64,000 nt of DNA from Amphiscolops sp. MND2022 (Eukaryota), in contig OZ076409.1 in NCBI GenBank assembly GCA_964187785.1, positions 79,796,001 through 79,860,000 of the forward strand, read 5' to 3'. Of this stretch, positions 1 through 54,867 are shown one piece after another. Every line of letters starts with the position of its first letter. Within the stretch, counting starts at the first letter, position 1. The position numbers and the translations under genes were made by a program. The notes beneath the pieces were generated by a model. The model worked only from the letters and a program-made list of their open reading frames with translations, had not been told where the DNA came from and made no database searches.

Positions 1-2550
1 GAGCCCGAGAGATCTTGCGTCACCATGCTACTGAGCGACATTTGCCGAAGGACCAAAGGTGTCGTTACGAGCACCTTTCCACCGAAGACCCAGTGACTAA
101 GATGGTGAAGCACCATGTCCGTGGAAAGGATGGCAAACTTCTTACTCCGTACGAATTGCAATTGGAGTTGCCAAAGTTCAAGGACGTACCGCTAGTGGAC
201 ATCGGTGAAAAACTTCCATTCTATGAAGATTATATGCGAGGCACCGACTATATGACGTCTTCATCAGAAAACAGAGCGAGGGTCCAGGTGTCAATCCTTG
301 GCCATTATCTGCGTACCCATGGGGATATCAGCGCATTAAGGAACCTCTGGAGTGACGTTGGCGTCGTTGTCAACCACCAGGCTCTTTTTACAGACTTCGA
401 CTGGAGTAGAGAACGTTTGTCGGTAAGTATTTTGTTGCCGTCATAATGACCTTGAGTCCATTTCCGACTCTAAACCTAATACTATCTAACAGTTCGTCGT
501 TGTTTTGCAGGCGCTCTTCCATCATTTATTCCTGCAGGCTATACGTGACATCGGAACCCACGTGGTTGAGTCAGGCGAATATTCTTTGGAGTTTGTGAAA
601 CAAGGAGTTTTCTTATTGGTCTTCATACGATTCTGGCGTAAAGATGAACTGTGCCGCGTGCTTCTCAAGCGAACAGGTAGAGTGTTAGGACAGTCCGCAG
701 CTGAACTCCATCTAATTAGCGACCTCATGGCCGTGTTCTCGACCTCTCCAAACATCGTCAGTTGCTCTGGAAGTACCTTAGAGACAGTTCAAACTGTAGA
801 TAACTCCCCGTTCAACAAGCATGGACTACAACGCCCGCTTCGATTTGCTGACTTCTCAATTGCTAAGCTCATGCACAAGGAGAGCTACAGCGTCTTTGGA
901 CGCATAGACTTCCATTCCGTGCTGAAGTATTTAATTGTGTTCCTTGGTGGCTGCCTTGACCAAGATTGGACCTTGCTAACCCCAGTTCTTGCGAAAGTTG
1001 GTTGTTCTTAATTGTTTGCATCGTTTCATAATGTATTGCAGCTTAATGGTTTTGGTTCCTTTAGGCTGTTAGAACGTGCCAAATTGAACTGGGTACCTTA
1101 CCGACTCTCTGTCAGGAACTTCTCTCCCACTGGAGCAGTGTGTGTGGCTATCTTAACGCCCATGCCCCGCCTCATGAAATGATGGGAGTAAAAAGACAGG
1201 TAAGTTTTGCCGTCAGACTGACCCCAGGTCCGAATTGGATCCCTTTTGAGGAACCCTGGTATTTTAGCCTCAGAATCTGGAGAGGGCAATGCTTAGCGAC
1301 GAACTATTCCTCTGCCGCCTCGAGCTCTTTTACCGACTAGTCAGGGACTGTAAGTAAGATCCGTTTACCGGTTGGGTTATAAGGTTAAATCCCATGAGTG
1401 TATTAACATATTTTGTTTAGACACTACTAGTTTCGTGCCACACCTTGTTGAAAGACGGGACCACGGGTTCCACATCTATCGGCAATTGTGTCAGTTTCTC
1501 CTCAAGCTTGGAAGACGATGCATGCGGCCCAAGAATCTCCCACAGGAAAATGATTTGTCTGGAATCCTAAACATTTCCGTCTCTGATACCAGGGCCCTTA
1601 CAGTTACCGATTTTATCGTGAGGTCGAAGTTAGAGCAGAGATTGAATACTGCTTGCAAAATCAAAGCTGAGCGAGAGCTGAGTGACAAGAAGGGGAGTCG
1701 AGCCAACCTCCCTAAACTTGTGAAAGATGCAAAGGAAGACTTCGGGAGGCTCGGAAGGGCATACGTTGCTTACTTGTTTCACTCAGCACAGAGCAATCTC
1801 CAACTCACAAGTGACATTGTAAAAGGACTTGGGTCATTCGATTTAGACATCATGTTCAGATGTCCACTCGGTCAGGCTCTTTATTGTTATAAACAGTTAT
1901 TTCGAAGCTTCCAACTCCGTGGATATTTCCAGCCCGACGAGGAGTCCGTTTACACAGAGGAATATTTGTCCTTTTTAGATGAATTAAGGAAAGAGCTGCC
2001 CGAGTTGGACCAACCTAGAGTCATCATAACTGACGCCGTTATCTACATTTCCACACATGAGGCCTTGCAAAGTCGTCCTCATCTTGCCCGAATCTTTAGG
2101 CTGAGCTGCTTGTGTCTAGACGAGGATTACACCAGTATGCCCACTGTGAAATTTGGGTCCGTCCGCACTGATGATCCAAAGAGTAAATTGATTGACACCA
2201 TTCTCCCCGTGCAATCTTTCTTTATGAATGTGGGACGCAGTATTGATATCTTGTCAACTGCTTCGTCTATTACTGAATTCTTGGCTTTTGAACCTACTTT
2301 CGGTGGCTCTGCCTTTTCTGACACGTATGGGCCGTGGGACGGCTTGGATTATTTCAATAGATCCAGCATTCTTTCTGTACTTAAGCCCAAACGAGGTACC
2401 CAGAAATCTGACACTCGCAGGTTACAATTCAAAGACACGAAGAGTCGCAACGTCACCAAGAGTCTCCCTTCGTCTAGTGTTAAAAATTCGCCTATTAAGC
2501 GACCATCGGACAGTGAGTTGCCTTCTGTGTCGGGCACTAAAAACGTTTAA
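1..2550 (+). pseudogene. Spliced antisense gene, hAT-transposase-like with no recognisable DDE residues; exons <1-422, 511-996, 1042-1353, 1421-2550
   Basis: Phase-compatible introns: 423-510 (GTAAGT..TTGCAG), 997-1041 (GTTGGT..TTGCAG), 1354-1420 (GTAAGA..TTTAG). hAT-like motifs ILRHHATERH, YSLEF..LLVFIRFW and RPHLARIFRLSCLCL. This copy has a frameshift in a TG run (~1140) and a TAG at 1338. Confidence 0.65.
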
Positions 2551-2747
2551 TTGTACCATATGTACATTTGTTTTTATCTGTATTTATGTATTCTTTCGTT
2601 TGTCTATCAGTCTTGAGTCTTTATTTGTCTGTTTGAATAATCGTGTCATTTTGACACTCGTTTGGAATTTCCTGTAGTCCAATAAGTCAGTCGGGGCCCA
2701 TAAAAAATGGTTTGAAAAATCAGAAAAAATGCAACGGGCCAGAAAAT

Positions 2748-4653
2748 TTACATATTCTGACTAGTATCTGTATTCATCAGTGAAGTTGGGGTAGGATTGG
2801 GACGTAGGTTATATCTCCCTCCCCTAGGACTTTCATTTTCTACAACACAATCATCAGTTTCTTCAATTAATACATCGGGCACGGTTGTATCGTTCCCCCC
2901 GGAAGTTGAAATTTCTGAATTTTCATCTCTAGGAAAATCCTGATTGGTCAATTCATCGTTTTCAGATTCGGTACTTTGTTGCCGTCTAGCGGACTGACGG
3001 TCCTCATTGTGTGCGTTTCTTGAGTATTGCTCCGTATTATCAGCCTCAGTATTTGTTTGCCGTCGTGCGGACCGAAGGTCCGTTTCGTTTATTTCGTTTG
3101 AGCGTGAGTCACTATCAGTATCATCAACGTGAGCGGCGTCAGTATTTGTTTGCCGTCGCGTGGACCGTAGGTCCAAATCTGTGATTATAGCATCTTGTTC
3201 ATCGGAATTGGTAGGGAGTTCATTAGTAACAGTCCGATTTTCAGAATTAGGAGGGAAATCGTCAAAATTGGTTTCCCATGAAATGATGTACAGATCATCT
3301 TGTGGAATAATAATTTCATCGTCTGCTTGTAAATTTCCTTCAGGACGAATGTCTTGTGGGGTAGTATTTGGGGTGTATTTTCTAAGGCGAATTCGGTGTA
3401 AAATCTGCGTTTTGTTAGAACTAAGTTTGCGAACAATATAGTTATCGTTAGGTAAAACTTTCTCGATGACGTACGGGCCTATCCATCGAAATTCGCGAAA
3501 TGGGATTTTAGAGCCTTGATGGTCAGCTAGAGGTTGTAAAATGAAACAAAAGTCTCCTTGTAGTAAAGGGGCTGCTTTAGCCTTTCGGTCATAATATTCC
3601 TTGTACTCTAAATATGATTGCATGATGTTTTTCTTTGTTTGATCAATTAGTATTTGCGTACGTCTTTGGAATTCCTCAGCAAAATCAGTAGTTGGAGTGA
3701 TGTGCGGGTTAGGGTTTAGTCCTAACCGGTGGTCTATACTAGATATTATAGGGTACTCTTCCATGAAAAATTCGGGTGGGTTCGCATCCAAGACTTGAAT
3801 GATAGGTTGTGTTATAATTAAGGACGGCCAATGGGAGATATTTGTGCCATTGACGCCTGTATTCGCCTGATGCCATTTTAAGGTTGCCCTTAAGGCTGGC
3901 ATGAGTGCGTTCTAGTTTGCCTATCGTCTGAGGATGCTTTGTGGTCGCGCACCGAAGGTGAATTCCTAAAATTTTGGTAATTTCATCTAGGAGTTTGGAC
4001 GTAAAGGCAGTGCCTTTGTCGGTGATGAGCGTAGTCGGCAAATAGGAATGCTTTGTCATGATATCGATAATGACCTTTGCCGTATTGACGGCCGAAGCGT
4101 CCGTTACTGGGTAGGCAAAGAGATATCTAGAGAACACATCCAGAGCCGTTATGACGTTTTCATAGCCTCCACTTGGGGGTAAGTTGGGCAGAATATCAAT
4201 TTGTAGGGCGTCTTCTGGACCAAGATCCCATTCGGGCAAATTGAGTAATTCGGGTGTTATGGATGCATTGCTGACTCTTTTGTCTTTTATACAAATTTCA
4301 CACCCTTGGACCCACTTTTTGACGATTTTTGCAATTCCAGGGTAGTAGTATTTTCGTCGAATTTCATGCAGCATTTTTGAGATTCCCGGATGTTTGTTCG
4401 CGGAACCATGTAGTGATTGGAGTAATTCTGTGACTAGATGTTTCGGTAATAATGCTTGGCGAAATTGGACACTGCCTGTTTCATCGTAGTAGTCTCTGAA
4501 AATGATGTCATCATGTACGGACAGACGGTCAATTTGACGGCAGTAATGTCGGTAACGCAAATCTTGCTGTAAGATGGTTTCAGAGTATTCGTCTTTTTGC
4601 AGTTTGAGTCGTAATTGATGCAAGATAAGGTCGTTCTGTTGTTCTATAGCCAT
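2748..4653 (-). pseudogene. gypsy integrase (HHCC zinc finger, DDE core, GPY/F motif, acidic C-terminal extension), frameshifted
   Basis: HGSANKHPG..CEIC, QIDIL, ITDKGTAF, GKLER and WIGPY motifs; split across ORFs 3739-4653 and 2748-3902. Confidence 0.93.
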
Positions 4654-4892
4654 GGTGGTTGGTTTTGCCAGTTTTGTATATTTTGAGTTTGGAATTGTGT
4701 ATTATCATGAGTGCTAAGATGATCTAACAAAATATCAGGAGGTTGATTCATTGGGTTTGACCTGGCGTCTTGTTTGCGTTTCCAGATTTGTTCTTCTGTT
4801 TCTCCATCATCGTCCGTATAGAAGATCTGTTCCTCTTCAGTAACTCCCGCTGATTGGACGTTGAGTTCAATGGGTGTGGTGGAAATATCTTC

Positions 4893-7800
4893 TCATATCC
4901 GGAGTATGAGTTTTTCTTTGGGACAGATTTCTAGACGTGACAAGTAGTCAGCGGCAGTATTGTTTTTGCCAGGTATATGGGCTATTGTGAAACTGAATTG
5001 CATAACGTAGTCACACGCGTTCCACAATGTAGGTGGAATGATTTTTGTTTGAAAAAAGCGAGTGACTGACTTGTTGTCTGTTAGTATTATCACCGGTTTC
5101 GGGGTCCCCCAGAAGATATGGCCAAACTCTTTGAATGCAAAGAATATTGCTAGGAATTCTTTCGCATAAATGGACATCTTCAGTTGGGCTGGACTAAAGG
5201 TCTTGGATCCATATGCTACAGGTGCGAAGGCTTTTCGCGTCGAAGTATATTTTTCCATCGGATCGTCCTCGATGAGAACTGCATAACCTGCTGCCGAAAA
5301 ACTAGCGTCTGTCATCAGGGCTATCTGTTTATCGGGTAGAGGTTGTTTGAGTGCCAGTTCACAACATCGGTCAAGAGCTTTGTTGATCTCGGTGAATTTT
5401 TCTAACAGATCGGGTGTCACCATGACTTTGGCATCACTTTTCAATAACTTGAAAAACGGTGTGAGTTTTTCTGAGAGTCTTGGAATGTAGTTACGGTAGT
5501 AGTTCAAGAATCCCAAGTATCTTTGAAGGGCTTTCTTGGATTTAGGGAATTTGGTCTTTTCCAAGAAATTCTGGACCCTGGGTCGTTGTGGCCGCACCCC
5601 TTCAGGAGTGATGGTACGTCCCAGGAAGTCGATTTCCTTGGCTCCGAAATGGCACTTGTGCATCGTTAGTTTGAGGCCAGCGGTCCTGATGCACTGGAAC
5701 GTTGCTCGAAGGTTGTTGATGAGCTGAGTAGCGTCGTTTGCAGCTATCCCAATATCATCTACGTACTGAGCGCATTGGTCAGCTTTTATCACTTTATCCA
5801 GGTATTCGCGCATAAAGCTCGAGAATGCGGACAGCGCTCTGCTTAGACCTTGGGCAAGTCGGCGATAGGCAAAGGTTCTGCTGGCAAAATTGAACGCCAG
5901 CATCTCGATTGACCTCTGGTCAGCCATCTGAAGGCAGTGGTATGCTTGAGAACAATCAAGTTTGCAAAATAATCGTTTGCCTGCCATGTGTTGCGCAGCA
6001 TCCGTTAGTGTGCTGACAGGATGGTTGTTGTTGATATAATCGTCGGAAATCAGGTTGTTGATCTTTCGGAGGTCGACCAGGAGTCGAAGTTTGCCGTTAG
6101 GTTTTTTCTGGGCAAAAATGGGACTTGCATATTTGGAAAATGGGAGAGTTGTTATAATCCCATATCGATGTAGTAGGGCTAGTTCTACAAGGATATCTTC
6201 TTTGAGGTTGATAGGAGTAGGTAAGCTTTGACTATAGGCAGGAGAGTCGTCTTTAGGGGTCAAAGTGACCTTGAAGTCCTCGTTCATACCTATATCAAAG
6301 CGGTGTCGTGCAAAAATATCGTGAAATTCAACAAGTAATTCTTCAATTTGGGCAATTTCGGCTGGATTTAGCGTCGAGTCTGTCCAGTCGAAGTTAGCAA
6401 AAAATTGTTTCCGCGATTCAGGGTCATCCTGAGGGTTGAGTTTCTCTAAATCTTGGAGATTTCGTAGTTCCCTAAGGATTCTTTGTTGTATTGGTGTGTG
6501 AGTTTGGGGATCTCCTGGTTCTTCTGGAGTAGGGAACCAATAGTTCTCACTATCATCGCTAGTTTTCGAGGATTTGATCAGGCTACTGGCATAATAGGCA
6601 GCATTTTCCGGGTTATCCTTCAAAAGGTGCCAAGTGGTCACAGGATCAATGGGTTTGACGTATTTCATCTGCTCTGGTGTGAGGATAGAGAAATTGGCAA
6701 TGTGCGAACCTCTTTTGAGGGTGTACGGGTGGTCAGTGAAGTTGTTGACATGGATTGATGCCTGACCTTGGGTCAGTGTGACTAGAGCGGCGCAGAAGGT
6801 TATATCACCATCTTCTGCAAGGTCGTTGCTCGGTTGAAGAATTCCAGTGACGTTTGTGTCGTCATATAGTTGTGAGAACATGGAAACCATATGTCTGTCG
6901 TTGGAGGGAATAGTTATATCCTCCCGTGCACAGATAGGTTCCATGACGTTAGTGTACTTGTGGTCAGCGGTTTTCAATTGCATGGAGAAGAAAGGGAAGT
7001 TTAAAACTCCTTGACGCATGTCCAGTATGGTATTGTTCCGTTGCAGGAACGAGAGACCAATTAACGGACTTGTGAGTTTTTCCATAACAATGAAGATCTC
7101 GTGGAAATCGATGTCTCCGACCTCGAATTTGAGTTCAACGGTGCTCTTTGGAGTCTCCAGCTGTCCATTGGCTACCATAATCTGGAAGTTGGGTGCTGGG
7201 CCCTCTTTAATTATTGACTGAGGGGCTAATAATCGGATTTTACGTAGATCAGCTTCTGGGATAGCGCTAGATAGGGCTCCCGTGTCTACAAGGCCATCTA
7301 AAGTTAGTTCGCCAAAATCCATGGGGAAGTAGAGCATCCGTCGTTTGTATTTGAGTCCCAAATTGGTCGTCAACGGGACGTAGTCAGGTTCACCGTTTCG
7401 TGAGATCAGCGTATTCACAAAGCGCTCTTCCACTGTTGCCGTCAATGTGACCAAAGGTCCATTGTGTGGAAGTTGTTCGGGTATGGCCTCCTGGATTGGT
7501 GAATTGGTGTTAATCCACACTTTTTGCCAGGGGTCAACAGAGGCCGTGGATAGTTTTGTGTTCAGAAGCTGATCAATGTGAGGTTGATCATGTTCGATAT
7601 CGGCAATGTTTTTGGTAAAGTTTTTGTAGAAGTGTAGCTGATGTTGGTTGTAGATTTGAATGTCCCAATAGGGGTCGAATCCGAAGTCCGGGTCAGGATA
7701 ATATGGGTTATAGTTATCGATTAGGGGAAGGGGGCGAACGGTCGTAGTATTAGAGTGCTGTCTGTCGGACTGAAGGTCCGGGTTGTGTCAGTAAGTAGGC

Positions 7801-7946
7801 AAGTGCTTCACCTGCTGCTGCCAGTCAGCTGATGAAGTTTCTTTAATTGAAGAGTAATATTCTGTATAATATATAGTAGGAGGATCAGATATTATATATT
7901 GTCTGATGCGTAATTTTTCATTAATATGGAGTCGTGGCAAATCTAG
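4893..7946 (-). pseudogene. pol: gypsy pol: aspartic protease, dUTPase-like spacer, reverse transcriptase, RNase H
   Basis: LVDTGA, LRLLVDLRKIN, LAQGL, YVDD, MTDAS, LTDNK and ADYLSR motifs. The frame extends up to the gag slippery site, with in-frame TGA stops at ~7790 and 4893-4895. Confidence 0.95.
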
Positions 7947-9745
7947 TTTTTTGAGTTTTTAAGGATAGAAGTAGTAGTTTTGTTGGTAGAGTCATCGTTT
8001 CTATTGGTCATTTCCTCAGTGTTGGAGTTGTCGAGCTTGAGGTTTTTGGGCTCGAGGTGTGCTCCAGCGCCTTTCCAACATCTCTCCGCCGGGTGATTGG
8101 TTTTGTCACAAGTCGGGCACTTTGGGTACTCTTTTTTGGTACTCGAGCTTTCATTGCGTTTTTGCTCTTCCTTTCGTTTTAGTTTTCGGCAATCGTCTTT
8201 GACATGTCCAGGTTTTTTGCAGTAGTTGCAAGTTATTCCTGGGTCAATGCCTGATGAAAGGAGTCCTTGTCCCGGACGTGTGGCTGTCGGGGCTGTTGAC
8301 ATTGTGGGAACGGGAATGTCGTCGCCTTCCTCAAGTCCATTCAGCTCCAGTTCTCGTTCGAGATGAGTGACAATTTCTTCGTAGGTGGCATTCTCTAATC
8401 GCGCCATGTTGACTGAACGTTTGAGTTTCGGTGGGAGTTTTGCGTATAGCAGACTGTCAATCATGGCTTGTGCGTGCTCGCCAAAGGCTTTTTCGGCGCC
8501 CTGATTGAGTTCCTCGAGAAAATCGGGCAATTTCATTGTGTTTGGGTCAAATACCAATTTGTGCCATTTATGTTTGGCAGTTGCCTGAGATTCAGGTTTG
8601 ACATATTTCCTACGAAACACAGCTAGTACGTCTTCTAAGGTTTGTCTATTTGCCGAACTGATGTTGCGGAAGGTTTGCAAGGCATTTTTGCGCAACAGTG
8701 AATGAAAGTGATTAATTTTCATTGCTTCCGTCATATCGGGTTGCATCTTTATCACCGTGTGAAAAAGGTCTTCAAACAGTTCGAATTTTTCAGATTTGCC
8801 GTCAAATGTGAGTGTGGCAGTATTGACTGGTCGTACCATCAGTGTTTGTGCTGATGATTTGTTGTTCATTCCCATAATGACATCGGCAAGTCTGTTTATG
8901 GGGTCTAATGGTGTTTGGGGCTGCATTTCCCGGTCATTGATAGGATTTGAGGGAATCTGTGTCGGGAGAGTGGTATCTAATGTAACATCGTTGACGCATT
9001 GTTGATGGGGAATTTTGTTTCTGGACTGCGTGGGACGTCCGGTCAGAAATTCAGGGACTGCATGTGGAGTAAGGTTGGCTCCTGTCACCATGTCATAACC
9101 ATCATCATTTTCACTTTGTTCAGAATCTTCCAAACATTCCATTTGATGATTTGAAAGGTTACTTGCTGTTGTGTTTAGTCTAGGAAAATTCTCTCTTGAG
9201 TCCTGGACCTGTTGGCTGAATTTATTTTTATGCCGTCCATATGACCCAAGGTCCACAGTCTGGTCCATAGGGACGTTTCTACTCGGATGCCGTCCATCTG
9301 ACCGAAGGTCCAATTTCGCGTTCTTAGTCTCCCTATGATTTACTATGACATTTTCGATGCTCGGTAGTATTTTTTCATCGATAGCGGAGTTTATTACCTC
9401 CATAATATGGGAATTTAGATCAGATTTCATTTCTTCCAATTTCCTCGACATCTGTGAAGAAATTTCTGAACTAATTGCTCTACTAGTTTCTACTGTAATT
9501 TCACTATTCTCACTCAAATTTGTATTCAAAAGAGATCTATAATTGCTTTCTTCTTGCCTGAAACCTTGTTGCCGTCTACTTGACTCAGGGTCAATTTCTA
9601 TTTGATCTACCGTGTTTTGGTCTCTAATTTCGCTGTTTGAGTAATTTCCAAGCATCACATCAAAATTTTCAATATCTGACATTACGTCAGACTGTCTAGA
9701 ACGTTTCTCTCTTGCTTTCTGCTTTCTAGTTGAAGGCATTTTCAA
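7943..9745 (-). CDS. gag: gypsy Gag with two CCHC zinc knuckles
   Basis: 600-aa ORF with CNYCKKPGHVKDDC and CPTCDKTNHPAERC, and a capsid-like FDGKSEKFELFEDLF region. Confidence 0.92.
   Translation of the reverse strand: MKMPSTRKQKAREKRSRQSDVMSDIENFDVMLGNYSNSEIRDQNTVDQIEIDPESSRRQQGFRQEESNYRSLLNTNLSENSEITVETSRAISSEISSQMSRKLEEMKSDLNSHIMEVINSAIDEKILPSIENVIVNHRETKNAKLDLRSDGRHPSRNVPMDQTVDLGSYGRHKNKFSQQVQDSRENFPRLNTTASNLSNHQMECLEDSEQSENDDGYDMVTGANLTPHAVPEFLTGRPTQSRNKIPHQQCVNDVTLDTTLPTQIPSNPINDREMQPQTPLDPINRLADVIMGMNNKSSAQTLMVRPVNTATLTFDGKSEKFELFEDLFHTVIKMQPDMTEAMKINHFHSLLRKNALQTFRNISSANRQTLEDVLAVFRRKYVKPESQATAKHKWHKLVFDPNTMKLPDFLEELNQGAEKAFGEHAQAMIDSLLYAKLPPKLKRSVNMARLENATYEEIVTHLERELELNGLEEGDDIPVPTMSTAPTATRPGQGLLSSGIDPGITCNYCKKPGHVKDDCRKLKRKEEQKRNESSSTKKEYPKCPTCDKTNHPAERCWKGAGAHLEPKNLKLDNSNTEEMTNRNDDSTNKTTTSILKNSKN
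7946..7952 (-). promoter_or_regulatory. -1 ribosomal frameshift slippery heptamer A AAA AAC at gag/pol junction
   Basis: Minus strand TCA AAA AAC TAG in the gag frame; the -1 frame is the pol frame. Confidence 0.75.
9079..9090 (-). promoter_or_regulatory. Primer binding site TGGTGACAGGAG (tRNA-Leu-like), inside gag ORF
   Basis: Directly follows ...TTATGACA (LTR-type end) and resembles the Leu PBS TGGTGTCAGGAG; encodes MVTG in Gag. Confidence 0.65.
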
Positions 9746-10627
9746 GAAATGGATTTGATTCCAACAGTGAATTAATCAACAGTAACAAATCAAACAGTTT
9801 TGTATCGTAGCGTTTTCAATCAATGAATGAATGATCCCTCTTATTACAAATTCCGCGTATATATAGTTTATACTGCATGACACGCAATATTTTGCGTGTC
9901 AGGAACTAAATTTAGGGTGATATCATTCTAAATATAGCCCCGATTTCATTATTAGGTCACTAGTTCTAAAAATAGACTGAGGGTTTTGACATTACGTCAC
10001 ACAAATGAAGAGATATAAATAGCATCAAACAAACAGTGGGTATCTTTACATGTATTCAAATTCAGGTTAAAATCAACCTTTCATGCATTGGTAACATCAA
10101 TACTCAATGAAATTCTAAATTTGACCATGCGTCAGCATGACTGCAATGATAGACTGGTACTTCACTCTGATTGGTCAACAAGTACTTGTGACCACACGTC
10201 AATTTGACTGCAGTAGAGTACTAGTTAATTAACTAAGAAAAGTGTCTTAAGGTACTCTTTAAACACCGTTTAACAGCACTTGAGTTACTTTGCTAAGTAT
10301 TGCGTCGTTAACTAAGTGATGTACTTTAGGTTCAGATTAATTGCAAGTAATTTCATCAATGGGAAATTCTAAATAGTAACAAATCAATAATAGCAATTGA
10401 ATAAATGCACAGATTAAATGCTGTCAGTTTGACCTTTGGTCTAAATAGTAACATCGAAATTGCATGTTTAGCGTTAATAATTCGGTCATTACATGCATGA
10501 AACAAATATTAAACTATCAGAATAAATGCTAAAGTTCGTTTCAGAGTTTGTTCTAGATAGGTAGTACCCCGGGGGCTGGTGGCGTCTCATTACCTTCTGG
10601 CATCATTTGGTATAGGATGCCGTCACA
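9091..10627 (-). repeat. Putative 5' LTR (~1.5 kb) of the gypsy element
   Basis: Minus strand TGTGAC...TGACA adjacent to the PBS. The outer boundary cannot be confirmed without the 3' LTR. Confidence 0.55.
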
Positions 10628-11079
10628 AGCGGCAGCTTGCGACAGTGTAACTTTGAGGCCTTTTTCGAAAAATATCAGAATACTCTTGGTAAGGCATAGA
10701 TACGGGATAGATAGCTGGTTCTTTTTGTGAAATTTTTTGGTTAATATAATTGTTCGAAACGTTCAAAAATGTACAAGAGTTGCCCAAAAATGTAAAAGAA
10801 GAGAAAATTTTGAAGTTTCCATGTTTTTTGTTGTCATTTTGAGACACTTTTCAACAAATGTTTCAAAGATTTCTTCCGAAAGGAGATTGAACGCTTCTTC
10901 GTTTTGGAACAACTTTTGGGGTGGTCTAAGTCACCAAAGTTTGTAAAACTACAAACAATGCTTAAGAGATCTAAAATGAAACATTTTGAAAATCTCAAGA
11001 GTTTTGAGGTTAATTTGAGGCACTCTTTCATCGCAAATATTCAGATGTCTCTGGAAAAAAAGCATGGGTAGCTGTTGTT

Positions 11080-12657
11080 GGTCGGGCGACAATTCGTCCC
11101 AAATTCCAAAAAGCGACAATTCGTCCCAAATTCCAAAAAGCGACAATTCGTCCCAAATTCCAAAAAGCGACGATTCGTGCCAAGCGTCAATTCGTCCCAA
11201 ATTCCAAAAAGCGACAATTCGTCCCAAATTCCAAAAAGCGACAATTCGTCCCCAATTCCAAAAAGCGTCAATTCGTCCCAAATTCCAAAAAGCGACAATT
11301 CGTCCCAAGCGTCAATTCCAATTCGTCCCATTTTGAAAAGGCGACAATTCATCCCATTTGTAAAAAGCGACAATTCGTCCCAAATTCTTTAATTGATCAG
11401 CTACTTACCAACCTTTTGAAGCTTGAAATGAAAGAAGTAATCAATTCAACTACAAATGAATTCATTTAAGCACGTGACAACAATTAGAAAATGTTGCATT
11501 TTAACGTACTTTAAACAGTCGTAGAATGTTGAAATTAATTGTTGGTACCTGCCTCTAATTGCAATCTTCACGGATTTGATATTACAAAGGTCTTTATTGG
11601 CAATTAAATTGGCGACAAATTGCAGCTTTTAATAATTGGGACGAATTGTCGCCTTTTCAAAATGGGACGCCAGTTTGAATAAAATTGAAATCTTGCACGT
11701 ATCTTGCAAGTTTCTTATAAAACATGGTATTTTTGCAAGCTTTTTGCAAGCCGATGCCAGTCTTGCAAGAATCTTGCAAGAATCTTGCAAGAATCTTGCA
11801 AGACAATGCAAATCTTGCAAGATGATAAATTGGAAAACCAGTCTTGCAAGAATCTTGCAAGACCATGCAAATCTTGCAAGACAACAAATGAGTTGTGATA
11901 ACGTAGTCAACAGCTTCACCAATTGTCGAAAAAGGTTATTTTTCTCTTGTTTTTGCGTTTTTTTTCTAAAAAAATGTACGCCTATGATCAATTTAAGTTA
12001 GTTCGGCCTAATTTCAAAGTCTCCATCGTTTACATGCTAAAAGAGGGTATTTGTGTTCCAATGTACTGCATCAAAACTGAGTTTCGAATGTCGGTTTTTT
12101 ATTACAAAAAATAGGTTTTTAGGGTGCAATACTAAAATCACACTTCTAGAGTTTTAATTTTCTAGAGTTTGCATTTTTGGGTCCTTCAAAATTTAAGAAG
12201 TGAGACTCTGGCTGTATCTATCTGGCTGTCGCCTTTAAGTCAATATTAAATTGACAAAACTGAGGTGACTGAAGTCAGGGGTTTGTCTACTAAAATCTTA
12301 TATAAAATATTCTGAAAAAAATGTCTGGAATCGCTTTTTTGATAATAGAGTATAGGGACAGGTGGAGTTGATTATTAATGGTGATGTTCAATGGAACGAA
12401 ACTTTTGAATTCCCAGTCGAAGCATGCAAATATCTTGAAAGGTCGACACTTTCCTAGAAAGTATAACACAATGTCAATTCATTTCTTGCAAGACAATTTG
12501 CAAGAAAAATGCATTGACTTGCAAAATCTTGTCGGACGTCTTGCAAGATATTTTCAAGAATTACATTTTTCCAACCTAGGGAATTGTCGCTTTTTGGAAT
12601 TTGGGACGAATTGTTGCTTGGGACGAATTGTTGCTTGGGACGAATTGTCGCTTTACG
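11080..12657. mobile_element. Non-autonomous Mutator-like/foldback element with 27-bp tandem subterminal repeats
   Basis: 9-bp TSD GCTGTTGTT (11071-11079, 12658-12666); inverted arrays of GCGACAATTCGTCCCAAATTCCAAAAA. Confidence 0.85.
11670..12581. mobile_element. Nested non-autonomous element with 11-bp TCTTGCAAGAA repeats
   Basis: Interrupts a GGGACG|AATTGTCGC unit of the host MITE; imperfect terminal inverted repeats; TCTTGCAAG arrays near both ends. Confidence 0.65.
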
Positions 12658-13013
12658 GCTGTTGTTTTGTGTTGAAACGTTTTGGATACTTGGCCCACCG
12701 AAGTATTTGAAACTGAAACCTGTACAGAAATGGCAAAAATATTTTTAAATTTTGGAAGTTTATTTTGACTTTCAGATATTTTGGGATCACTTTGAGGCAC
12801 TTTTTTATTCAAACGTTTCTTGAAAAAGTATCCTGGATAACTGGGTCCTTTGTTTTAGAATTCTATGGGTGAACCCCTACAATTTGTGTCTGAAAACTGA
12901 ACATGGTAAAATTTGGAGAAAAATCGAGACTCAGCTTGTAATTTTTTTGCCTTATGAATGTTCGAGCGGAAAATAAACGAAGTGTTGAGCTAATTGTTTG
13001 CGTATTTCCAGCC

Positions 13014-21877: not shown

Positions 21878-22761
21878 TCTTGGCGCTAGTCAATTGCGTG
21901 ATCAGAAACTCACACTCGAACGTGACTGATGAAGCTTACAACTCAAAACACTTAGAAACTTTGTCAAAATTTGAGTTGGGAAATTACAAGTTTCAGCAGA
22001 AATGTGCCTGAGACAAATTGGGCCACCCCCACCCCGTCCCGATTAACCACTTCATCAATCACCTTGAAACTCTGCACACATATAGTGGTGGTGCTATTCT
22101 AACTTTTCACTCATAACACCCTACCCCGTATCTCCCCTGGGTTCATAGCAATTAACACCCAAAGTGACCAAGGTCGGACCCCGCAAAACCCAATTTTGAT
22201 GCATTAATAATTATGTGATTTTCTCATTTGACCTTGAAGGAAATGTAACTCTGTTGAAATTTATGATATTTACATCGTGTAAACATGCTTTAGAGCCCAC
22301 CTAACCAACATGCTATACCCACACTATGGTTTGTTTACATAGCCAATAACTTTAATAATTCACTTAAATGTCATTCATTTATACTTCATATTTCAACTCA
22401 TATTTATCGAATAATTGTAAACGATATGTATACCATTGTTAGATAGGCACAAATTGATTGGAAAGCTGTATTAAAGTCGGGTCTCAGGACCACACATATT
22501 CTCAATTCATTTCTTCACCTCTTTTCGACGTTTCGCCAAAGACTTAGGGCGACTAAGTTAGTTACTCTCAACTTGTGGAGAGTTGGACGTGTAAAGAGAC
22601 AAAAAAGAAGTGCAATTCGGGATCATTGGATCCTACTAAGTCAAGATACAGTCCTTTTAATCTAAGAAGCAAGCAGTGTTCGGTAACGATCCGCAGTGCC
22701 GAGCACCGAATTCGGGGCGGCGTAAAGTTTGGTCAATTGAAGGGATCAAGCAGCCGTTACA
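21878..22761 (+). repeat. BEL/Pao 5' LTR
   Basis: Direct repeat of 29171-30052; starts TC (mutated TG) and ends CA. Confidence 0.95.
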
Positions 22762-23246
22762 TTTGGTCCGCAGACCCGGACATCATCGATTGGGCGGACA
22801 TCATCACTTTTGGGGCGCACATAATCAATTGGGCGGAAAACTGGATGATCATCTGATTGCTACACAGCCAGAACAGCACTGTGCGAACAAGTGAATGTGT
22901 ACAGTGAACGACGACTGGTGGTGATCTATACACAACTGTGTGTGCTGCAAAGTGGTCTCATCTGGCCTCTCCTGGGTGAATTGTGTACTCTAGGGCTTGG
23001 GCTACTTCTGCAGGCGCTGAAAGATTGTATTCGAAGTGTTATTACTGGAAACTTTAGTTTACAGTGTACTCTGGGAGTTTGGGCTATTGTGTACTCTGGG
23101 GTTTGTGGGCGAATTCATCGGCTTGTTGAGAATTGTATTCACAGCAGAGTTTGGACTCCTGTGGTTAGTTAGTGTACTCTGGGGTTTTGGGCTAGTTCAA
23201 AATTGCTGAACCTAAGAGAATTGATTACAAAAGAATTGACAACTAT

Positions 23247-26200
23247 TTGAAGAGTTCTATCGACAAGCCACAATGGGAGAGCAACATGAGAGCAATTCAA
23301 AGCTTTGGGGCAAAATTGGATGAAATACATGCTGAGCAGCGCAAAGCAGATGTAACGAAGGAAAAACTCGCAGACCTTCTACCGAACCGACAAGACCTAC
23401 TGCCTAGATGGAAGACACTCGTCGGGGCGAACACAGCACTCTTGAAAGTCAAGTATCAGCCAGAATGGGCGGATAATAAAGGCGACCGATTCTGCAGATA
23501 TCGGAATGAATTAGATTCCTTGGAAACACGACATAAAAACATTAATCAGATGCTCACAATGATGAGGAGCCTAAAGAATGAAGGACAGTTGAAGGAGTTC
23601 CTACAATTTCAAAACTCCAAAGAGAAATGTGATGAAATGCTTCAGAAAAACGAAGATGAAATCAATACAAATCGGGATACTCTTTGCAACTCAGAGGATT
23701 ACAAAGCATTGGTGGAAACAACCGAAGAAACCCTCAAAAGGAGAGATGAAATTGTGGCCGAGATGGATGAGTTGTTGAAACACAGTGGAGATACTTCAAT
23801 CTACAGTGAGTTGCATCGTATGGAGGGAATAATTGCCCGTGCCAGGGTGAATTGGCAAGAGCAACAACTAAAGTCCCGTGACACTTCTCCTCAGAACCTC
23901 AGAAGAATGCGAATGAAGAAATGGCACAAGGTACCGATAGGCCCAATTCGTTTGAGAATCGTTGTGTTAATGAGGTGAATTCGCTACCTGAAGAAAGAGA
24001 TCAGTGTGCAAGCAAGGCACATTCAAAGGGCAACAGAACATCAGTTAGTTCAAAGTCAACTACCACAAAGCGAGTGATGCTCCTCGAACTGGAAGCAATG
24101 AAGAAACAAGAAGAAATCGATGAACAACTAGCTGCCAAGAAGCGCGAAGTAGAGATCCGAAAGAAACAAGAGGAGATGAACATGAGGATACTAGCGGAAG
24201 AATCAGAGATTGCGAAACTCGAAGAAGAAAAAGAGAAGTGTTTGGAACCATGTTACCTCCAAATCAAACAACAACGAACAACAAGATGACAAATGATACG
24301 GTACCGCCACATGTTGAACCCCCGTTAGCCTCACTGCACCCCCACATAGTCATTTCGGACACACAAGAATCGAAAACATGAGTCTACCAGCCAGTCTACC
24401 AAAACTGAAGTTAGCAGAATTCTCAGGTGACCCATTGGAATGGCCCGAGTGGTCAGGGTTGTTCCTCTCGACTGTCCATGCTGCAAACATCGATGCCAGC
24501 TTGAAGATGAATCACCTCAAAACGCTGGTCACTGGAAAAGCGAAAGAAGTAATTGCTGGACTAGGCTACATCGGAGACATGTATGATATTGCTTGGAATA
24601 CCTTGGTCGCGCACTTTGGAAGATCACAAGTGGTAGTTAACGCACAATTGAGACGAATATACACCTTTCCGCCAGTGAAAGCTTACGACTCTGTAGCATT
24701 GGTCAAATACTCAAGAATAGTTTCAAGTTGTGTACAAGTTCTGACGCAGATGAACTATGTTGGCGACTTGCAGTCAGAAGGCGTCCTGAGTAGTGGGACC
24801 AGAAAATTGCCAATGAACATGAAGACGAAATGGTTGGCGCATGCGAGACAAAATGCTAATTACTACATGGGGCTGGAAGCGTTCAGCTTATGGTTGCAAG
24901 AGATAGCAGCGGTGCAGGAAGATGTTCTCATGACAGGCAATCCCAACGCCGACAAATCAAAATAGGCAAGTAAAGACAAGCCAAAGAACTCTACGTTCTC
25001 AACCTTTGCTGACGACAGTGCCGACAAGAAGACTGGTCATGATTGTCCATTGAAAGATGGTAAACATCCCTTGTGGAAATGTGAGAAGTTTCTGTAGATG
25101 ACTTGTCAAGCACGATATGAAAAAGCCAAAGAGCTGAAACTCTGCTTTTGTTGTTTGGCTGGGAAACATGTAGTGAAAGACTGCACATACAAAGCGTGTG
25201 GAGTCAAAGGTTGTAACAGGCGGCACCATCGACTGCTACACCGCGAGACAAATGAGCGGCAGAAAGGAAGCGGAACGGAAGACCCACAACAGAAGGCGGA
25301 GGCGAACTCTGCATTTTGCTCATTAAAGAGCAGTGAAATTCTACCCGTTATACCTGTCATCATCCAAATTGGAAAAAAGCAAGAATCAACCTTGGCGTTG
25401 TGTGACTCTGGAGCAAGTCTATCGTTCATAGACAAGGAATTAGCCAACAAGTTAAATGCTCACGGGGAAGAAATTGACCTGAGTGTGGCTGGAATACATG
25501 GGACAAATGTGAAATGTGAACGATTCACTGTGGGAATTCGTGGCAAGGCAATGAGCGACACACACCACATGACAGTTTACACTCATCCAAACATAAACGC
25601 CGGAACAAAGATCTACAACTATCAGGAGCTCAAACTTGCCTATCCCCATTTGTCGGTCCTAAGCGAAGAAACATTGAAACTCAAAGATGTAAAAATGATA
25701 TTGGGACAAAACTGCTACCATATACATCGGCCTGTAGAATATAAACGCTGCACGAATGGTGAGCCTTGAGCAGTGAAAACGAAACTTGGATGGACTCTCT
25801 GTGGACCACTTCCACAACAAAAAGCTGTGCAGATGACTGCATCTTGCGTAACAGCCTCTGAAGATGATGCACTGGCAGAACAGATAAAAACGTGGTGGGA
25901 CATAGAATCCTATGCGTCTCGCTGCGTGTGTCTGGAAGGTCCAAGGAAGGTGAGAAGGCGTTGCAAATGCTGGAACAAACCACAAAGTTTGATGGTGAAA
26001 GATATGAAGTTGGTCATCTCCGGAAAAGAAATGACCCCTTCTTGCCAAACAATTACTCTTCTGCATTAGGCCAAATGAAATAGTTGGAGTATTGACTTGA
26101 GAAGAAACCAGATTTGAAGAAACTCTATCAAGACTCTATCAAAATAGATGTTGAAAAGGGATTCGTCAGAATCATAAAGCAGGAAGAATTGAAAGCTACA

Positions 26201-29156
26201 AAATTGGAAAGACAGTGGTATGTTCCACATCACCCAGTAGAAAACCCAAACAAACCAGGAAAGGTGAGGCGAGTGTGCAACGCAGCATTCAAATTCCGTG
26301 GAATTTCCTTGAAAGATAACCTTTTGACGAGGCCGGACCTACTGCAGAATCTGATTGGAATAATCTTCAGGTTTAGAGAACAAAAGATCGCCATCACTGC
26401 TGACCTTGAGGCGATGTTCCTACAAGTGAAAGTACCACCAGAAGATTGTAAAGTGTTGAGATTTCTATAGAGAGACAATCCAAATGAACCCATTAAGGTG
26501 TATGAATATGGAAGACATATCTTCGTAGCCAAAAGTTCGCCAACTTGCGCTAATTTTGCTCTGCAACAAGTTGCCAAAGATAAAGCACACGAGTTCCCAC
26601 AAATTACTAAACTGATAATGCGAAACTTCTATATGGATGACTTCGTCAAGTCTGTCCCCAGCGCGGAGCAGGCAATTGAGTTCTACAATATGTTGAGAGC
26701 GATGTTAGAAAGGGGAGGCTTTCACTTAACAAAATGGATTAGCAACTGCGAACAGACTATGACGTCTATCGACCAAGCAGACAAGTCACCGTCCTCTAGT
26801 AAAACCTTTGAAGCTGAACCGACTTCTCCATCAATCTTGGGACTGCAATGGATTGTTGACGCAGACAATCTGGAAGTCTGCAGAGGCATGCAGAAGGAGA
26901 TACCGGTGAAGATAAAGCAGGGAGCGGTGTTATCCCACATTTCAGCTGTGTTCGACCCTCTGGGAATAGTGTCTCCTTTTACTATCAGATTGCGACTGCT
27001 ACTAAAAGCTATATAGAAGGAGAACGGACAGTCGTGGGATAAAGAACTGAATGAAGAAAATCGACATGCATTCGAGAAATGGGCATCAGAGATGATTCAG
27101 GTGAATCAAATGGTCCTTAAAAGAACATATTTCGAGTCTGGAGTGAACAAAGTTGATCTACATATCTTCTCAGACGCTTCGTTGGAAGCAATGTGTATGG
27201 TTGCTTATTTGAGAAAACAAGACAATGGCGAAGTGATCTTTGTCATAGGAAAATGTAGAGTAGCTCCAATTAGGAACATGACGGTGGCCAAGTTGGAGAT
27301 GCAGACAGCAGTCTTTGGAGTAAGACTGCGTGAACTCATTTCAGAAGAACATGCTGTTGAAGTAGACCAAATCGTACACTGGACAGATTCAACAATGGTC
27401 CTACAATGGCTTCACGCAAGCAACAACAAGCAACCTGTCTTTGTAGCGAACAGAGTCGCAGAAATCCTCGAAAATTCAACTATCGATCAATGGCGGCATG
27501 TTGAAGGAAAAATGAATCCTGCTGACATTGGAACTCGAGGAATGACAGTTGAAGCCCTAAAGGAAAGTGAATGGCTCACAAGGCGGGTGTGGCTCACCGA
27601 GACAGAAGACGCCTGGCCTAAGGCGCCTGAAAGGTTGCAATTAAGCATTCGAGAAGACCCTGAACCCGTCAAGGAAGCTGCTGCAATGGAACCCGCATTC
27701 GAATGGGAAAGATTCAGGTCTTTCAAGAGGATGATTCGAGTGTTCTCATACTGTCTAAGGTGGAAGAAAAAGAGTTCTGGAGAAATTCTGACCGTTGAAG
27801 AACTCAATGCGGCAAAGCTGGCAATTTTGAAACGTTGTCGGAAAGAAATTTTTCATGATGCCTACGAGAAGATCTCTAAAGGACAGCCGTTGTCGGCTTC
27901 AGATCAGTTGAATAAGTTATCGCCGTTTCTGGACGAAAATGGATTGCTGCGACTACATAGCCGACTGCAGCATTCAAGATCAATTTATGAGGTCAAACAT
28001 CCGATCTTGTTGTCAGCAAAGCTCTATGTAGTCATCAAGTTGATTGAAGATGCTCATCGAGCGAACTTTCATGAAGGCACAGAATACGTCAGAAGTGTTC
28101 TGAGGCAAGAATACTGGTTATTGGATTCGAAACGCTTTGAGGAACGTCAAAGCGAAATGTATTAAATGTAGAAAGCAACGAGCTGGAGTGTCTCAGCCAT
28201 TTATGGCTGATTTACCGCGAGAGAGATTGCAGGAACGAGTATTCCCCTTTACAAACACTGGAGTTGACTATTTTGGTCCCTTTGAAGGGAAGTTAATGCG
28301 TAAGTCCATGAAGAGATGGTGTTGTCTCTTCACATGTTTGACAACTAGAGCAGTACACATTGAAGTCGTTCCATCTTTGGAAGCAGAGACCTGCTTAACT
28401 GCTATCACACCGTTTATTGCCCGTAGAGGTAAACCTGCTACAATTCTGAGCGATAATGGGACGAACTTCGTGGGTGCAGCCAAAGAAATGAGAGGATGTA
28501 TAAATGCATGGAATCAGTTAGACATCGAGACGTCGCTAGCTCAAAAGGACATCAAATGGAAATTCAACCCTCCAGGAGCCCCTCATTTTGGAGGAATCTG
28601 GGAACGATTGGTTCGAAGTTGTAAAAAAGCGATGATAGCTGTATCGGATGGACGATCTTTGACAGACGACGTCCTAATAACAACTATGTGTTTAGTAGAA
28701 CAGACTTTGAATGCTAGACCACTGACTAGTGTTAGTGACGATCCGGATGACCTGGAAGATTTGACACCGAACCACTTCTTATTGGGAAGATCTAATTTAG
28801 CCACACCATTCCTACCAGTTGCTCAACGTTACACAGATTTGCGACGAGTATTTCGAGTGTCGCAAGCTTATTCAGATATGATTTGGACTAGATGGACTAA
28901 AGAATATATGCCGGAGTGGAATGTGCGTAATAAATGTAACAAAGATGACGTGAGACAGCTGAAAGTCAACGATTTGGTTTGGTTCGTGGATGAAAATGTG
29001 AAGCGGTCTAACTACAAGATGGCGAGAGTATTTGAAGTGCAAGAAGGAAGCGACGGCAGAGTTAGATCTGCGACAGTGGTGACAAAAGATGGCAAACTCA
29101 AAAGACCAGTAGTGAAACTGGCACCCCTGTTCTATGAAAGTGTTTTTCGGGAGTGA
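23247..29156 (+). pseudogene. BEL/Pao gag-pol (DUF1759-type gag, Cys knuckles, protease, RT, RNase H, integrase), many stops and frameshifts
   Basis: LPKLKLAEFSGDPLEW, CFCCLAGKH, LCDSGA, YVPHHPV, FYMDD, IFSDAS, NPADIGTRG, GVDYFGP, SDNGTNF, GGIWER and RPVVKLAPL motifs. Confidence 0.95.
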
Positions 29157-29170
29157 AACAGGGCCGGCAA

Positions 29171-30052
29171 TGTTGGCGCCAGTCAATCGCGTGATCAGAA
29201 ACTCACACTCGAACGTGACTGATGAAGCTTACAACTCGAAACACTTAGAAACTTTGTCAAAATTTGAGTTGGGAAATTACAAGTTTCAGCAGAAATGTGC
29301 CTGAGACAAATTGGGCCACCCCCCCGTCCCGATGAACCACTTCATCAATCACCTTGAAACTCGGCACACATATAGTGGTGGTGCTATTCTAACTTTTCAA
29401 TCATAACACCCTACCCCGTATCTCCCCTGGGTTCAGAGCAATTAACACCCAAAGTGACCAAGGTCGGACCCCAGGAAAACCCATTTTTGATGCATTAATA
29501 ATTATGTGATTTTCTCATTTGACCTTGAAGGAAATGTAACTCTGTTGAAATTTATGATATTTACATTGTGTAAACATGCTTTAGAGCCCACCTAACCAAC
29601 ATGCTATACCCACACTATGGTTTGTTTACATAGCCAATAACTTTGATAATTCACTTAAATGTCATTCATTTATACTTCATATTTCAACTCATATTTATCG
29701 AATAATTGTAAACGATATGTATACCATTGTTAGATAGGCATAAATTGATTGGAAAGCTGTATTAAAGTCGGGTCTCAGGACCACACATATTCTCAATTCA
29801 TTTCTTCACCTCTTTTCGACTTTTCGCCAAAGACTTAGGGCGACTAAGTTAGTTACTCTCAACTTGTGGAGAGTTGGACGTTTTAAGAGACAAGGAAGAA
29901 GTGCAATTCGGGATCATTGGATCCTACTAAGTCAAGATACAGTCCTTTTAATCTAAGAAACAAGCAGTGTTCGGTAACGATCCGCAGTGCCGAGCACCGA
30001 ATTCAGGGCGGCGTAAAGTTTGGTCAATTGAAGGGATCAAGCAGCCGTTACA
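29171..30052 (+). repeat. BEL/Pao 3' LTR
   Basis: TGTT...TACA, direct repeat of the 5' LTR. Confidence 0.95.
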
Positions 30053-36400: not shown

Positions 36401-37737
36401 TTTCTGAAAACCGAACCCCTTGCAATAGGATTTTCACATTTCGAGTTAGGCGAAAGCTGTTTTCGAGTCTTAAGGGTACCCTTTCGTAATTCTTTTTGGC
36501 ACTTTGAATTTGATAGAATTTTTCACTATAATGCCCTTTGCATGGATGCGGGACAAAACAGCCGTTTTTAAAACGGAAAAAACAGCCGATTTTCAAAACG
36601 GGACAAAACAGCCGATTTTCAAAACGGGACAAAACAGCCGATTTTAAAACGGAAAAAACAGCCGATTTTCAAAACGGGACAAAACAGCCGATTTTCAAAA
36701 CGGGACAAAACAGCCGATTTTTGAAACGGGACAAAACAGCCGATTTTCAAAAATACTTAGCATATTTGTTGTATGGCTCGGTCACTTCGCTCTTTTCGCC
36801 AAGTAGCAACATTGAGGCATGGCCATATGGCACGTCGCTCCGCTTCGCTTCGCTCCTGCATTTAGGGCACTAGGAGTATGTGAACATAGCTGACTAGGGG
36901 AAATTGAAAAATTTATTTTATTCTTTCGGACTTTGTACTGTTTTAAAATCAGCTGTTTTGTCCTATTTTGAAAATCGGCTGTTTTGTCCTATTTTGAAAA
37001 TCGGCTGTTTTGTCCTGTTTTGAAAATCGGCTGTTTTGTCCCGTTTAAAATCGGCTGTTTTGTCCCGCTCCCCCTTTGCATATTCAAAATACTTTCTCGT
37101 TGTTATGTTTGAGCGGTTTGGGCCGTTCCAAGCTTGTTAAAAACTCGAGTGGCTTGAAAATGAAATCCTAACTTCAAATGCGTTATATGTGAAAAATCAA
37201 AGAACATCAAATGCTTTAGACATCAGTATGTATTTTAATTAGAGTTAATGAGAAGAGAAACAATCTTATAACTAGCCTCCAAGACGTAGGTTGCCACGTG
37301 TCGTCGAGAAACGCATCGAAACTGCCAAACTTGTCAGAAACTCCCAGAGGCACCAATGCTGTGTGGTTTTTGAATCCCGCGTAATACGGAGCCAACAAGG
37401 GGTCTATTTCGAACGAAATCATATAATATTCTTCTGGGTTGGGCCAAACTTCCCGGAACAACTTATAAGTGGATCCTGTATTGGCGCCGCAGTCCAGGAA
37501 AAATTTCCTGGGTCTGGAAGTCAAATTTGGAACCAAGTGAGAAAGCTTCAAGACTTCCAGAGACAGATCAGTTGTGTTAGTAGGTTTCCACTGAGTTGGC
37601 GTATCAAACACCCTATCACGAACATCCAGCTTGAATTTTTGAGATCGATTCTGCGCTAATGATTTCATCGAAACGTATATTATTGCCATTACGAGGAGCA
37701 TGTAGAAGAAAGTTTTCTTAACCAGCAGTGGGCTCAT
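30412..37737 (-). CDS. Host gene: type II membrane FkbM-family (Methyltransf_21-like) methyltransferase plus degenerate NodB/polysaccharide-deacetylase-like domain; exons 37737-37277, 31955-31679, 31281-30412 (~535 aa)
   Basis: N-terminal hydrophobic helix, FLDCGANTG, SFEIDP, LKMDIEGAEY and FFLEFH motifs; the three exons join in frame; a TTCCAG acceptor precedes the ATG. Confidence 0.85.
32066..32731 (-). mobile_element. LTR fragment carrying a gag-like 5' ORF, inside intron 1 of the host gene
   Basis: ORF RKEIMSDLTKILAENQKEML...NSRN ends at LTR-like CGTAACA; TGTTACG/CGTAAC inverted ends; no TSD found. Confidence 0.55.
36544..37071. mobile_element. Mutator-like MITE with ~23-bp subterminal tandem repeats
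   Basis: 10-bp TSD CCCTTTGCAT; TIR GGA(T)GCGGGACAAAACAGCCG; inverted arrays of GGGACAAAACAGCCGATTTTCAAAAC. Confidence 0.9.
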
Positions 37738-54750: not shown

Positions 54751-54867
54751 AATTTTTTAAAACCTCTATATAAATGCAGCTTTAAAAAAACTTTCTACCG
54801 GTCGACTGCGATAGTGGCTGGTATGAGTAGTTTGTTTTTGTTACCGGTCTACTGGGATAGTGGCTAG

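Follow-up and report, generated by a model that had tools for sequence, protein, structure and literature searches.

What a gene resembling a DNA transposase does inside a long terminal repeat (LTR) retrotransposon, antisense to gag and pol and interrupted by introns, is the question raised by the left end of a 64,000-nucleotide stretch of the Amphiscolops sp. MND2022 genome (NCBI GenBank assembly GCA_964187785.1, 1.07 Gb; contig OZ076409.1, positions 79,796,001 to 79,860,000 of the forward strand), here called the window and numbered from its first base, with the prefix C1 for coordinates along the whole contig (window = C1:79796001-79860000). An extra 10 kb to the left was read to complete the element, a Gypsy-type retrotransposon of 16,087 bp, whose antisense gene consists of five exons with 1,317 codons and lies in the interval from pol to the 3′ LTR. 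The explanation favoured here, for which the sequence evidence leaves belief and doubt about evenly balanced, is that the gene product is a hAT transposase which has lost its activity and has been retained to regulate, sequence-specifically, the retrotransposon that carries it.

Window 1-2550 holds only the 3′ part of the gene, which starts at C1:79794302 and whose first exon encodes, in order, a low-complexity stretch of some 530 residues (Ser/Thr/Pro/acidic), the basic patch RKRPRKK, a BED-like finger of C2H2 type and a conserved helical region. A first-pass annotation, confined to the window, had joined four open reading frames (ORFs) through three introns of 88, 45 and 67 bp, tolerating one frameshift and one stop that were taken for decay similar to that of pol. 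The 88-nt first intron stands; the gene has four introns, however, the others measuring 68, 68 and 71 nt, the one at 1200-1267 (68 nt) having been overlooked, and the acceptor of the supposed 45-nt intron 2 lies at 1063-64, where AG is found in 20/20 diverged copies, rather than at 1040-41, where it is found in only 3/20. With four introns the frame is open throughout window 1-2550, the frameshift and stop become unnecessary, and the apparent decay proves to be an artefact of the wrong exon model; the single premature stop of the window copy falls at codon 417, ∼450 bases left of the window. GT and AG persist at every one of the eight splice ends, as do the start ATG and the stop codon, in 20/20 diverged copies (∼64-72% exon DNA identity, with saturated synonymous sites) and likewise in 14/14 closer copies, and by this retention the predicted exon–intron structure is not a product of chance; L049, which carries an internal duplication, was omitted from the exon-structure alignment. 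The 20 diverged copies contain 256 indels across the four introns versus two in exons 2-4, and introns 1 and 2 recur with GT-AG ends at the same codon positions in 7/7 distant subfamilies. The homologue P0070 lacks intron 1 and subfamily J precisely lacks intron 3, both reading through the intron positions in exact register, so that the junctions find support independently of RNA data. From the end of the gene (2550) to the stop of the integrase frame (2748) there are 197 bp, tail-to-tail and with no LTR between, close to the ∼200 bp estimated earlier.

That the gene travels with the element, as the first-pass annotation had supposed, is borne out by its presence in 20/20 fetched copies, which share the same layout of five exons and integrase tail-to-tail, and in 4/4 loci chosen by reverse transcriptase (RT) alone. 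The family is large: the best 123 of 7,643 candidates from a protein search of the genome were scored, and all 123 are at least 76% identical. Among 10 loci from distant subfamilies, eight are complete elements of 15.5-16.4 kb with LTRs 97-100% alike and the gene present; relative to the window their RT is 90-97% identical but exon 5 only 32-52%. The remaining two, together with 4/4 further members of that subfamily, carry the gene and an integrase tail, with no pol in the DNA read. Purifying selection, which the first-pass annotation had proposed as a check, is evident in the ratio of non-synonymous to synonymous substitution rates (dN/dS; 14 of 18 loci, with L039, L044, L046 and L049 left out as partial or rearranged), which for 9/9 diverged copies with readable dS takes values of 0.03-0.11 over the folded parts and of 0.13-0.22 over the N-terminal arm and is near neutral among the five closest siblings, a contrast that has the pattern of selection on a replicating lineage followed by decay after insertion. 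In 10 of the 20 copies L051-L070 the integrase reaches at least 95% DNA identity, against 68-76% for exon 5, so that the antisense module is exchanged between subfamilies. One element, identical in RT but distant in its antisense gene, was considered as a recombinant that might serve as a natural experiment; this was rejected, its pol being only ∼80% alike in DNA.

Loci G and H were considered as a free-standing donor DNA transposon and likewise rejected, the integrase tail following the gene in both and in 4/4 further copies. In the pol-less subfamily (L135-L136, L141-L144, L133-L134) the antisense exons are open and are followed by the integrase tail and then by 88-bp repeat arrays; four loci share a unit, 10 kb long or more, at 94-100% identity, so it has spread recently. 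Searches for database relatives gave 117 and 79 matches and 525 clusters at 50% identity, the family being without a name in the records matched; because the best matches of two of the relatives tested, P0070 and P0072, in the window genome reach just 44% and 53%, other genomes probably carry the family. None of 184 pattern matches in a JGI metagenome scan was confirmed as a relative, and for exon 5 a weak search revealed no longer relatives in fused or spliced form.

The hAT resemblance that the first-pass annotation had read from motif order is upheld by structural and embedding scores of moderate size. Beyond the low-complexity residues 1-530, in which a basic patch lies at residue 499, a CxxC...H...H finger begins at 554, with the pattern CxxC-17-HH-4-H and an upstream Trp conserved over 58 aligned sequences. 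The model of exon 2 (predicted local distance difference test (pLDDT) 77) runs helix, three strands, helix, strand, helix, and in Foldseek the Hermes transposase takes ranks 1-6, 8, 9 and 11 among 350,542 chains, with a best E of 4.6e-3 (none at 1e-3) and probability 0.99-1.00. VIA places residues 1-107 of exon 2 on Hermes 149-263 (Z 6.7, root-mean-square deviation (rmsd) 2.9, 102 residues) and the helical exon 5 model (pLDDT 87) collinearly on Hermes 367-609 (rank 9, Z 4.9, rmsd 7.0, 167 residues, the longest alignment listed). In an Atlas search with residues 255-605 of P0070 the top match was an unnamed cluster (0.93), and 8/8 listed rows with a Pfam family were hAT-type (DUF4371, ZBED1/ZBED5 RNase-like, DUF659, zf-BED; scores 0.87-0.92). 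The agreement of these three modest, collinear signals makes a hAT origin of the protein very probable.

Several results pull away from that attribution: the VIA Z for Hermes equals that of other RNase H and actin-like folds; Foldseek gave the exon 5 model no clear match, with Hermes not among the candidates; Pfam recognised no hAT, BED or TRP28 family in the window frames or in 102 and 104 aligned members; and profile–profile comparison with 14 host hAT sequences was not significant. A second VIA run with exon 5 gave no clear match and an Atlas search with it no usable one; the zinc finger drew only sub-threshold C2H2 matches in Pfam and no zf-BED match; PF05699 (C-terminal dimerisation) was not matched by Pfam in 102 members; four alignments, searched against the sequences of solved structures, matched nothing significantly; and a DUF4371 search of the genome matched nothing, as was also true of its control. 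An alignment of joined exon 1 and exon 2 pieces was misaligned and served solely as a Pfam sequence list.

Catalytic activity has probably been lost, in keeping with the earlier statement that neither the catalytic Asp-Asp-Glu (DDE) triad nor the CxxH motif is recognisable. In sequence register against host hAT transposases, as opposed to residue-level superposition, the residue at the first Asp position varies (Glu 32%, Ala 29%, Val 17%), the end of strand 4 has no conserved acid, the Glu position is hydrophobic and CxxH is missing.

A candidate target for such a protein is present in the element itself. An unbiased spaced-word scan found GAC-N5-GTC 36 times where 4.3 are expected, other spacers staying near chance (N4, 3 versus 4.0 expected; N6, 8 versus 3.6); TGCCGTC occurs 16 times versus 1.5 expected, and many sites are extended to TGCCGTC-N5-GAC-N5-GTC. 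Eight of the 36 sites lie in the LTR (1.55 kb, the densest part), 13 in the 3′ region and 15 in pol-gag, with those in pol falling in all three frames; sites are also found beside the promoter region and splice donors of the antisense gene and within its introns. Density is 16-27 per 10 kb in 20/20 copies, and the controls hold 12 sites in 53 kb of flank, one in a BEL element and 15 in 98 kb of hAT loci. Within introns 1 and 3, motif bases are conserved at 0.96 versus 0.56 for the remaining intron bases (n = 12). GAC-N5-GTC marks 5/9 complete elements (25-36 times), whereas the other 4/9 lack it and contain GCC-N6-GGC, 13 times each versus ∼1.8 expected; these four have a different loop before the recognition helix of the finger. 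Hermes BED domains are described in PMC10368747 as binding a palindrome cooperatively plus a third repeat, with base contacts made by the loop before the recognition helix.

The favoured explanation, that of a dead hAT transposase regulating its own retrotransposon, would begin with a Gypsy ancestor that acquired a hAT-type transposase gene, antisense, between pol and the 3′ LTR, where a promoter of its own, in the 3′ region, would drive its transcription before splicing. Its introns would persist through reverse transcription since the genomic RNA corresponds to the other strand, as expected from established retrotransposon biology. The protein would have shed the DDE site while retaining the zinc finger and transposase scaffold, and would have acquired the long disordered N-terminal arm with its basic patch; once in the nucleus, the finger on its scaffold may contact the palindromes of cognate copies, and the arm may activate transcription or hold off host silencing, as with transposase-derived regulators of plant DNA transposons. 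The putative accessory role put forward in the first-pass annotation now has a candidate target motif. A bolder proposal, in which a retrotransposon lineage domesticated the transposase as its own self-recognition factor, co-evolving with element-wide palindromes, and in which swapping of this activating or anti-silencing module between subfamilies explains the filling of a gigabase genome, is offered tentatively, with doubt somewhat outweighing belief.

It may instead be that the protein is hAT-derived and essential while the palindromes are read by another factor (the gag N-terminus, the small sense ORF of the 3′ region or a host factor) or act as RNA or single-stranded DNA hairpins, the protein having a role that does not need them, such as binding chromatin or other proteins or putting a brake on copy number; this is rather unlikely, and it draws on the observations that count against palindrome binding. 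The motif switched a single time, RT, integrase, gag and the small sense ORF having changed on that branch as well, and motif class tracks every gene tree alike, so that the motif is not attributable to the antisense protein on this ground and co-evolution is not established. Bases flanking the motif pair slightly above expectation (63 versus 48 and 67 versus 49 of 162), as a hairpin would also produce; the pol-less subfamily retains the gene and has neither motif; four-fold sites inside motifs show no conservation (n = 4), and individual sites come and go. Yet wobble-type flanks show no genomic-strand bias (TG 22 / CA 14, GT 21 / AC 19), the stem has just three fixed pairs, the exact spacing and the two clade-specific versions are easier to reconcile with a DNA binder encoded by the element than with a host factor, and no other element protein has a recognisable DNA-binding finger of that type. 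An improbable variant keeps the binding but moves it to the complementary DNA (cDNA), where the protein would coat the pre-integration complex, assist nuclear import or tether integrase to chosen sites. Sites along the whole 16 kb, 15/36 of them in pol-gag, the basic patch at residue 499 and a like role proposed for plant antisense ORFs in PMC7264820 would suit it, whereas an antisense gene that is transcribed on its own and spliced does not naturally enter particles, density peaks in the LTR (8 in 1.55 kb) and near the gene's own promoter region and splice donors, and the target duplications of seven complete elements have no common sequence by eye.

That a rearranged active site has been retained, and that the protein cuts or joins DNA in a second hAT-like mobilisation or processing route, is very unlikely, even with an entire transposase architecture under strong selection and a set of conserved acids: Glu27 on strand 1, two residues before the first Asp position and 95% conserved, which speaks against simple loss of catalysis, along with Glu65, Asp97 and Asp133 in exon 2 and Asp140 and Asp204 in exon 5. 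Two of the three canonical positions lack an acid, CxxH is absent, and insertions show LTR ends with duplications of 5 bp rather than 8 bp. Least credible of all is an independent hAT insertion or neutral passenger, refuted by linkage and selection: the genome is rich in hAT transposases (the best 150 of 2,215 candidates were scored), but the position of the gene is fixed across subfamilies 32-52% alike, dN/dS lies at 0.03-0.11, the gene-only candidates proved to carry an integrase tail, and self-comparisons revealed neither terminal inverted repeats (TIRs) of its own (very short ones could be missed) nor an 8-bp duplication.

The nearest precedents are plant systems, namely the antisense ORFs of Retand elements, VANC and TnpA, and the element belongs to none of these kinds, having no TRP28, not being a DNA transposon and lacking DDE. 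Plant Retand/Tat Gypsy elements (TRP28, PF04195; Grande, RIRE2) carry, in almost every copy, an antisense gene that is conserved, with DNA binding suspected, according to PMC11963269 and PMC7264820, in whose main texts the word 'intron' is absent. The likeness lies in a long region between pol and 3′ LTR with an antisense gene in most copies; in contrast, TRP28 (PF04195) is unmatched here in Pfam, and the present gene is spliced, spans 1,317 codons and has a predicted near-complete hAT architecture and a candidate target motif. VANC of Arabidopsis VANDAL elements (Mutator-like) is an anti-silencing factor whose short motifs show enrichment in no family but the cognate one, differ by family and are found also in its own introns, as described in PMC5735166. 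Here too an element-encoded factor is accompanied by family-specific motifs that differ between clades, some in its own introns, with binding putative; however, VANDALs are plant DNA transposons with non-palindromic, tandem, non-coding motifs, whereas the present element is a retrotransposon with dispersed spaced palindromes, coding DNA included, and no homology was seen between the two factors. TnpA of Spm/CACTA, like other transposase-derived regulators, has lost catalysis and acts on cognate copies, and the AtMu1 transposase is a further parallel in mode of action (bioRxiv 10.64898/2026.08.24.746577), the text of that preprint mentioning neither retrotransposon, LTR nor Gypsy; such regulators remain in DNA transposons or become host genes, unlike the present one, whose owner is a class I element.

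With Hermes and other hAT transposases the predicted protein shares an RNase H-like core, which a BED-like N-terminal finger precedes and a putative helical insertion follows in the same order, but it lacks the DDE triad and CxxH, has a 530-residue disordered arm, and its gene lacks TIRs and an 8-bp duplication. ZBED and SLEEPER genes are host-domesticated hATs; the present gene, in contrast, is retrotransposon-borne, in hundreds of copies rather than at one fixed host locus. The literature searched, outside which lie most subscription journals, Repbase and supplements, contained no account of a hAT-derived gene in an LTR element, and an unremarked database entry may exist. Prior knowledge comprised sequence-specific element-encoded regulators in plant DNA transposons and, in plant Gypsy elements, antisense ORFs without an assigned function; this element unites both, strong selection preserving the scaffold of a class II enzyme in a class I element, and its DNA itself indicates a candidate target site and a natural specificity switch between clades, by which the long-open question of the role of antisense retrotransposon genes becomes directly testable. 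If the regulator explanation is true, the route from transposase to regulator would extend to domestication of one transposon by another.

The host element is complete (Table 1), with paired LTRs, TG...CA ends, a polypurine tract and a primer-binding site whose first 12 bases are identical in other complete subfamilies with an exactly read LTR end. The LTRs differ at five positions over 1,554 bp (99.7% alike) and are flanked by a 5-bp target duplication; a leftward search for the partner LTR, proposed by the first-pass annotation, found it and the duplication, and showed the LTR to end at 10644 and not at 10627. The order gag, protease, RT, RNase H, integrase is that of Gypsy elements (Pfam), with pol broken into four frames in the window copy and a sub-threshold dUTPase match (Pfam, E 0.0013) at about residues 285-365 of the 4893-7787 frame, between protease and RT. 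Membership of Troyka was rejected, those LTR retrotransposons having CG...CG ends and a 3-bp target duplication according to PMC12440569. Odin and lokiretrovirus-like elements combine an RNase H tether with a second, new RNase H; by Pfam, one RNase H region is seen here, immediately after RT.

Table 1. Features of the retrotransposon and its antisense gene, in window coordinates unless prefixed C1.
Feature	Position	Strand	Remarks
Exon 1, 3′ end	1-422	+	exon begins C1:79794302, 707 codons
BED-like zinc finger, second half	1-41	+	His pair and last His at 21-41; CxxC ∼40 bases left of window
Intron 1	423-510	+	88 nt, phase 0, GAC-N5-GTC site at 448
Exon 2	511-996	+	162 codons; residues 1-107, predicted RNase H-like core
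Intron 2	997-1064	+	68 nt, phase 0
Exon 3	1065-1199	+	45 codons; indel-free in 20 copies
Intron 3	1200-1267	+	68 nt, phase 0, GAC-N5-GTC site at 1220
Exon 4	1268-1349	+	27 codons + one base
Intron 4	1350-1420	+	71 nt, phase 1
Exon 5	1421-2550	+	all-helical domain (putative hAT insertion domain and C-terminal part), then basic disordered tail
pol	2748-7787	-	protease, dUTPase-like stretch, RT, RNase H, integrase
gag	7943-9739	-	initial ∼216 codons within 5′ LTR
Primer-binding site	9073-9090	-	adjoins 5′ LTR
5′ LTR	9091-10644	-	1,554 bp, TG...CA ends, 8 GAC-N5-GTC sites
Target duplication	10645-10649		5 bp, beside 5′ LTR
3′ LTR	C1:79790558-79792111		left of window; partner of 9091-10644
Internal GAC-N5-GTC sites	448, 1103, 1220, 1936, 2992, 3070, 3163, 4520, 4759, 4939		start positions
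Internal GAC-N5-GTC sites, continued	5068, 5192, 5574, 5911, 6075, 6764, 7449, 7768, 9034		start positions; span 448-9044

The region of ∼6.4 kb between integrase and 3′ LTR contains, besides the antisense gene, a 337-codon ORF adjoining the LTR (L032 2020-3033, - strand, left of the window), which is sense to gag-pol, extends into the 3′ LTR, recurs in most subfamilies at 30-97% identity with a CxxC close to its end and has no Pfam match. The start of gag inside the LTR (window 9091-9739, - strand) leaves ∼216 codons duplicated in the 3′ LTR and a frame that crosses the primer-binding site, and gag begins within the LTR in the eight complete distant elements as well. RT (window 5570-6230, - strand) is near-invariant in the lineage, at 97-100% in 150 scored matches, and its closest solved structures are those of foamy virus (E 1.5e-15) and next Ty3 (3.4e-10). 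A match spacing of ∼14.5 kb at C7:62495290-62526654, C12:14845904-14876023 and C10:13.39-13.42 Mb suggests head-to-tail arrays of whole elements with common LTRs.

Elsewhere in the window, 53569-63835 contains duplications nested within one another and a 38-bp satellite organised in higher-order units, and duplicated frames of 251-287 codons at 54004 and 56445 have no Pfam match. A BEL/Pao LTR element at 22179-29769 (+ strand) has terminal repeats 98% alike and broken frames, and MITE-like (miniature inverted-repeat transposable element-like) sequences at 11059-12686 and 36539-37068 carry tandem units of 26-27 bp arranged as inverted terminal arrays.

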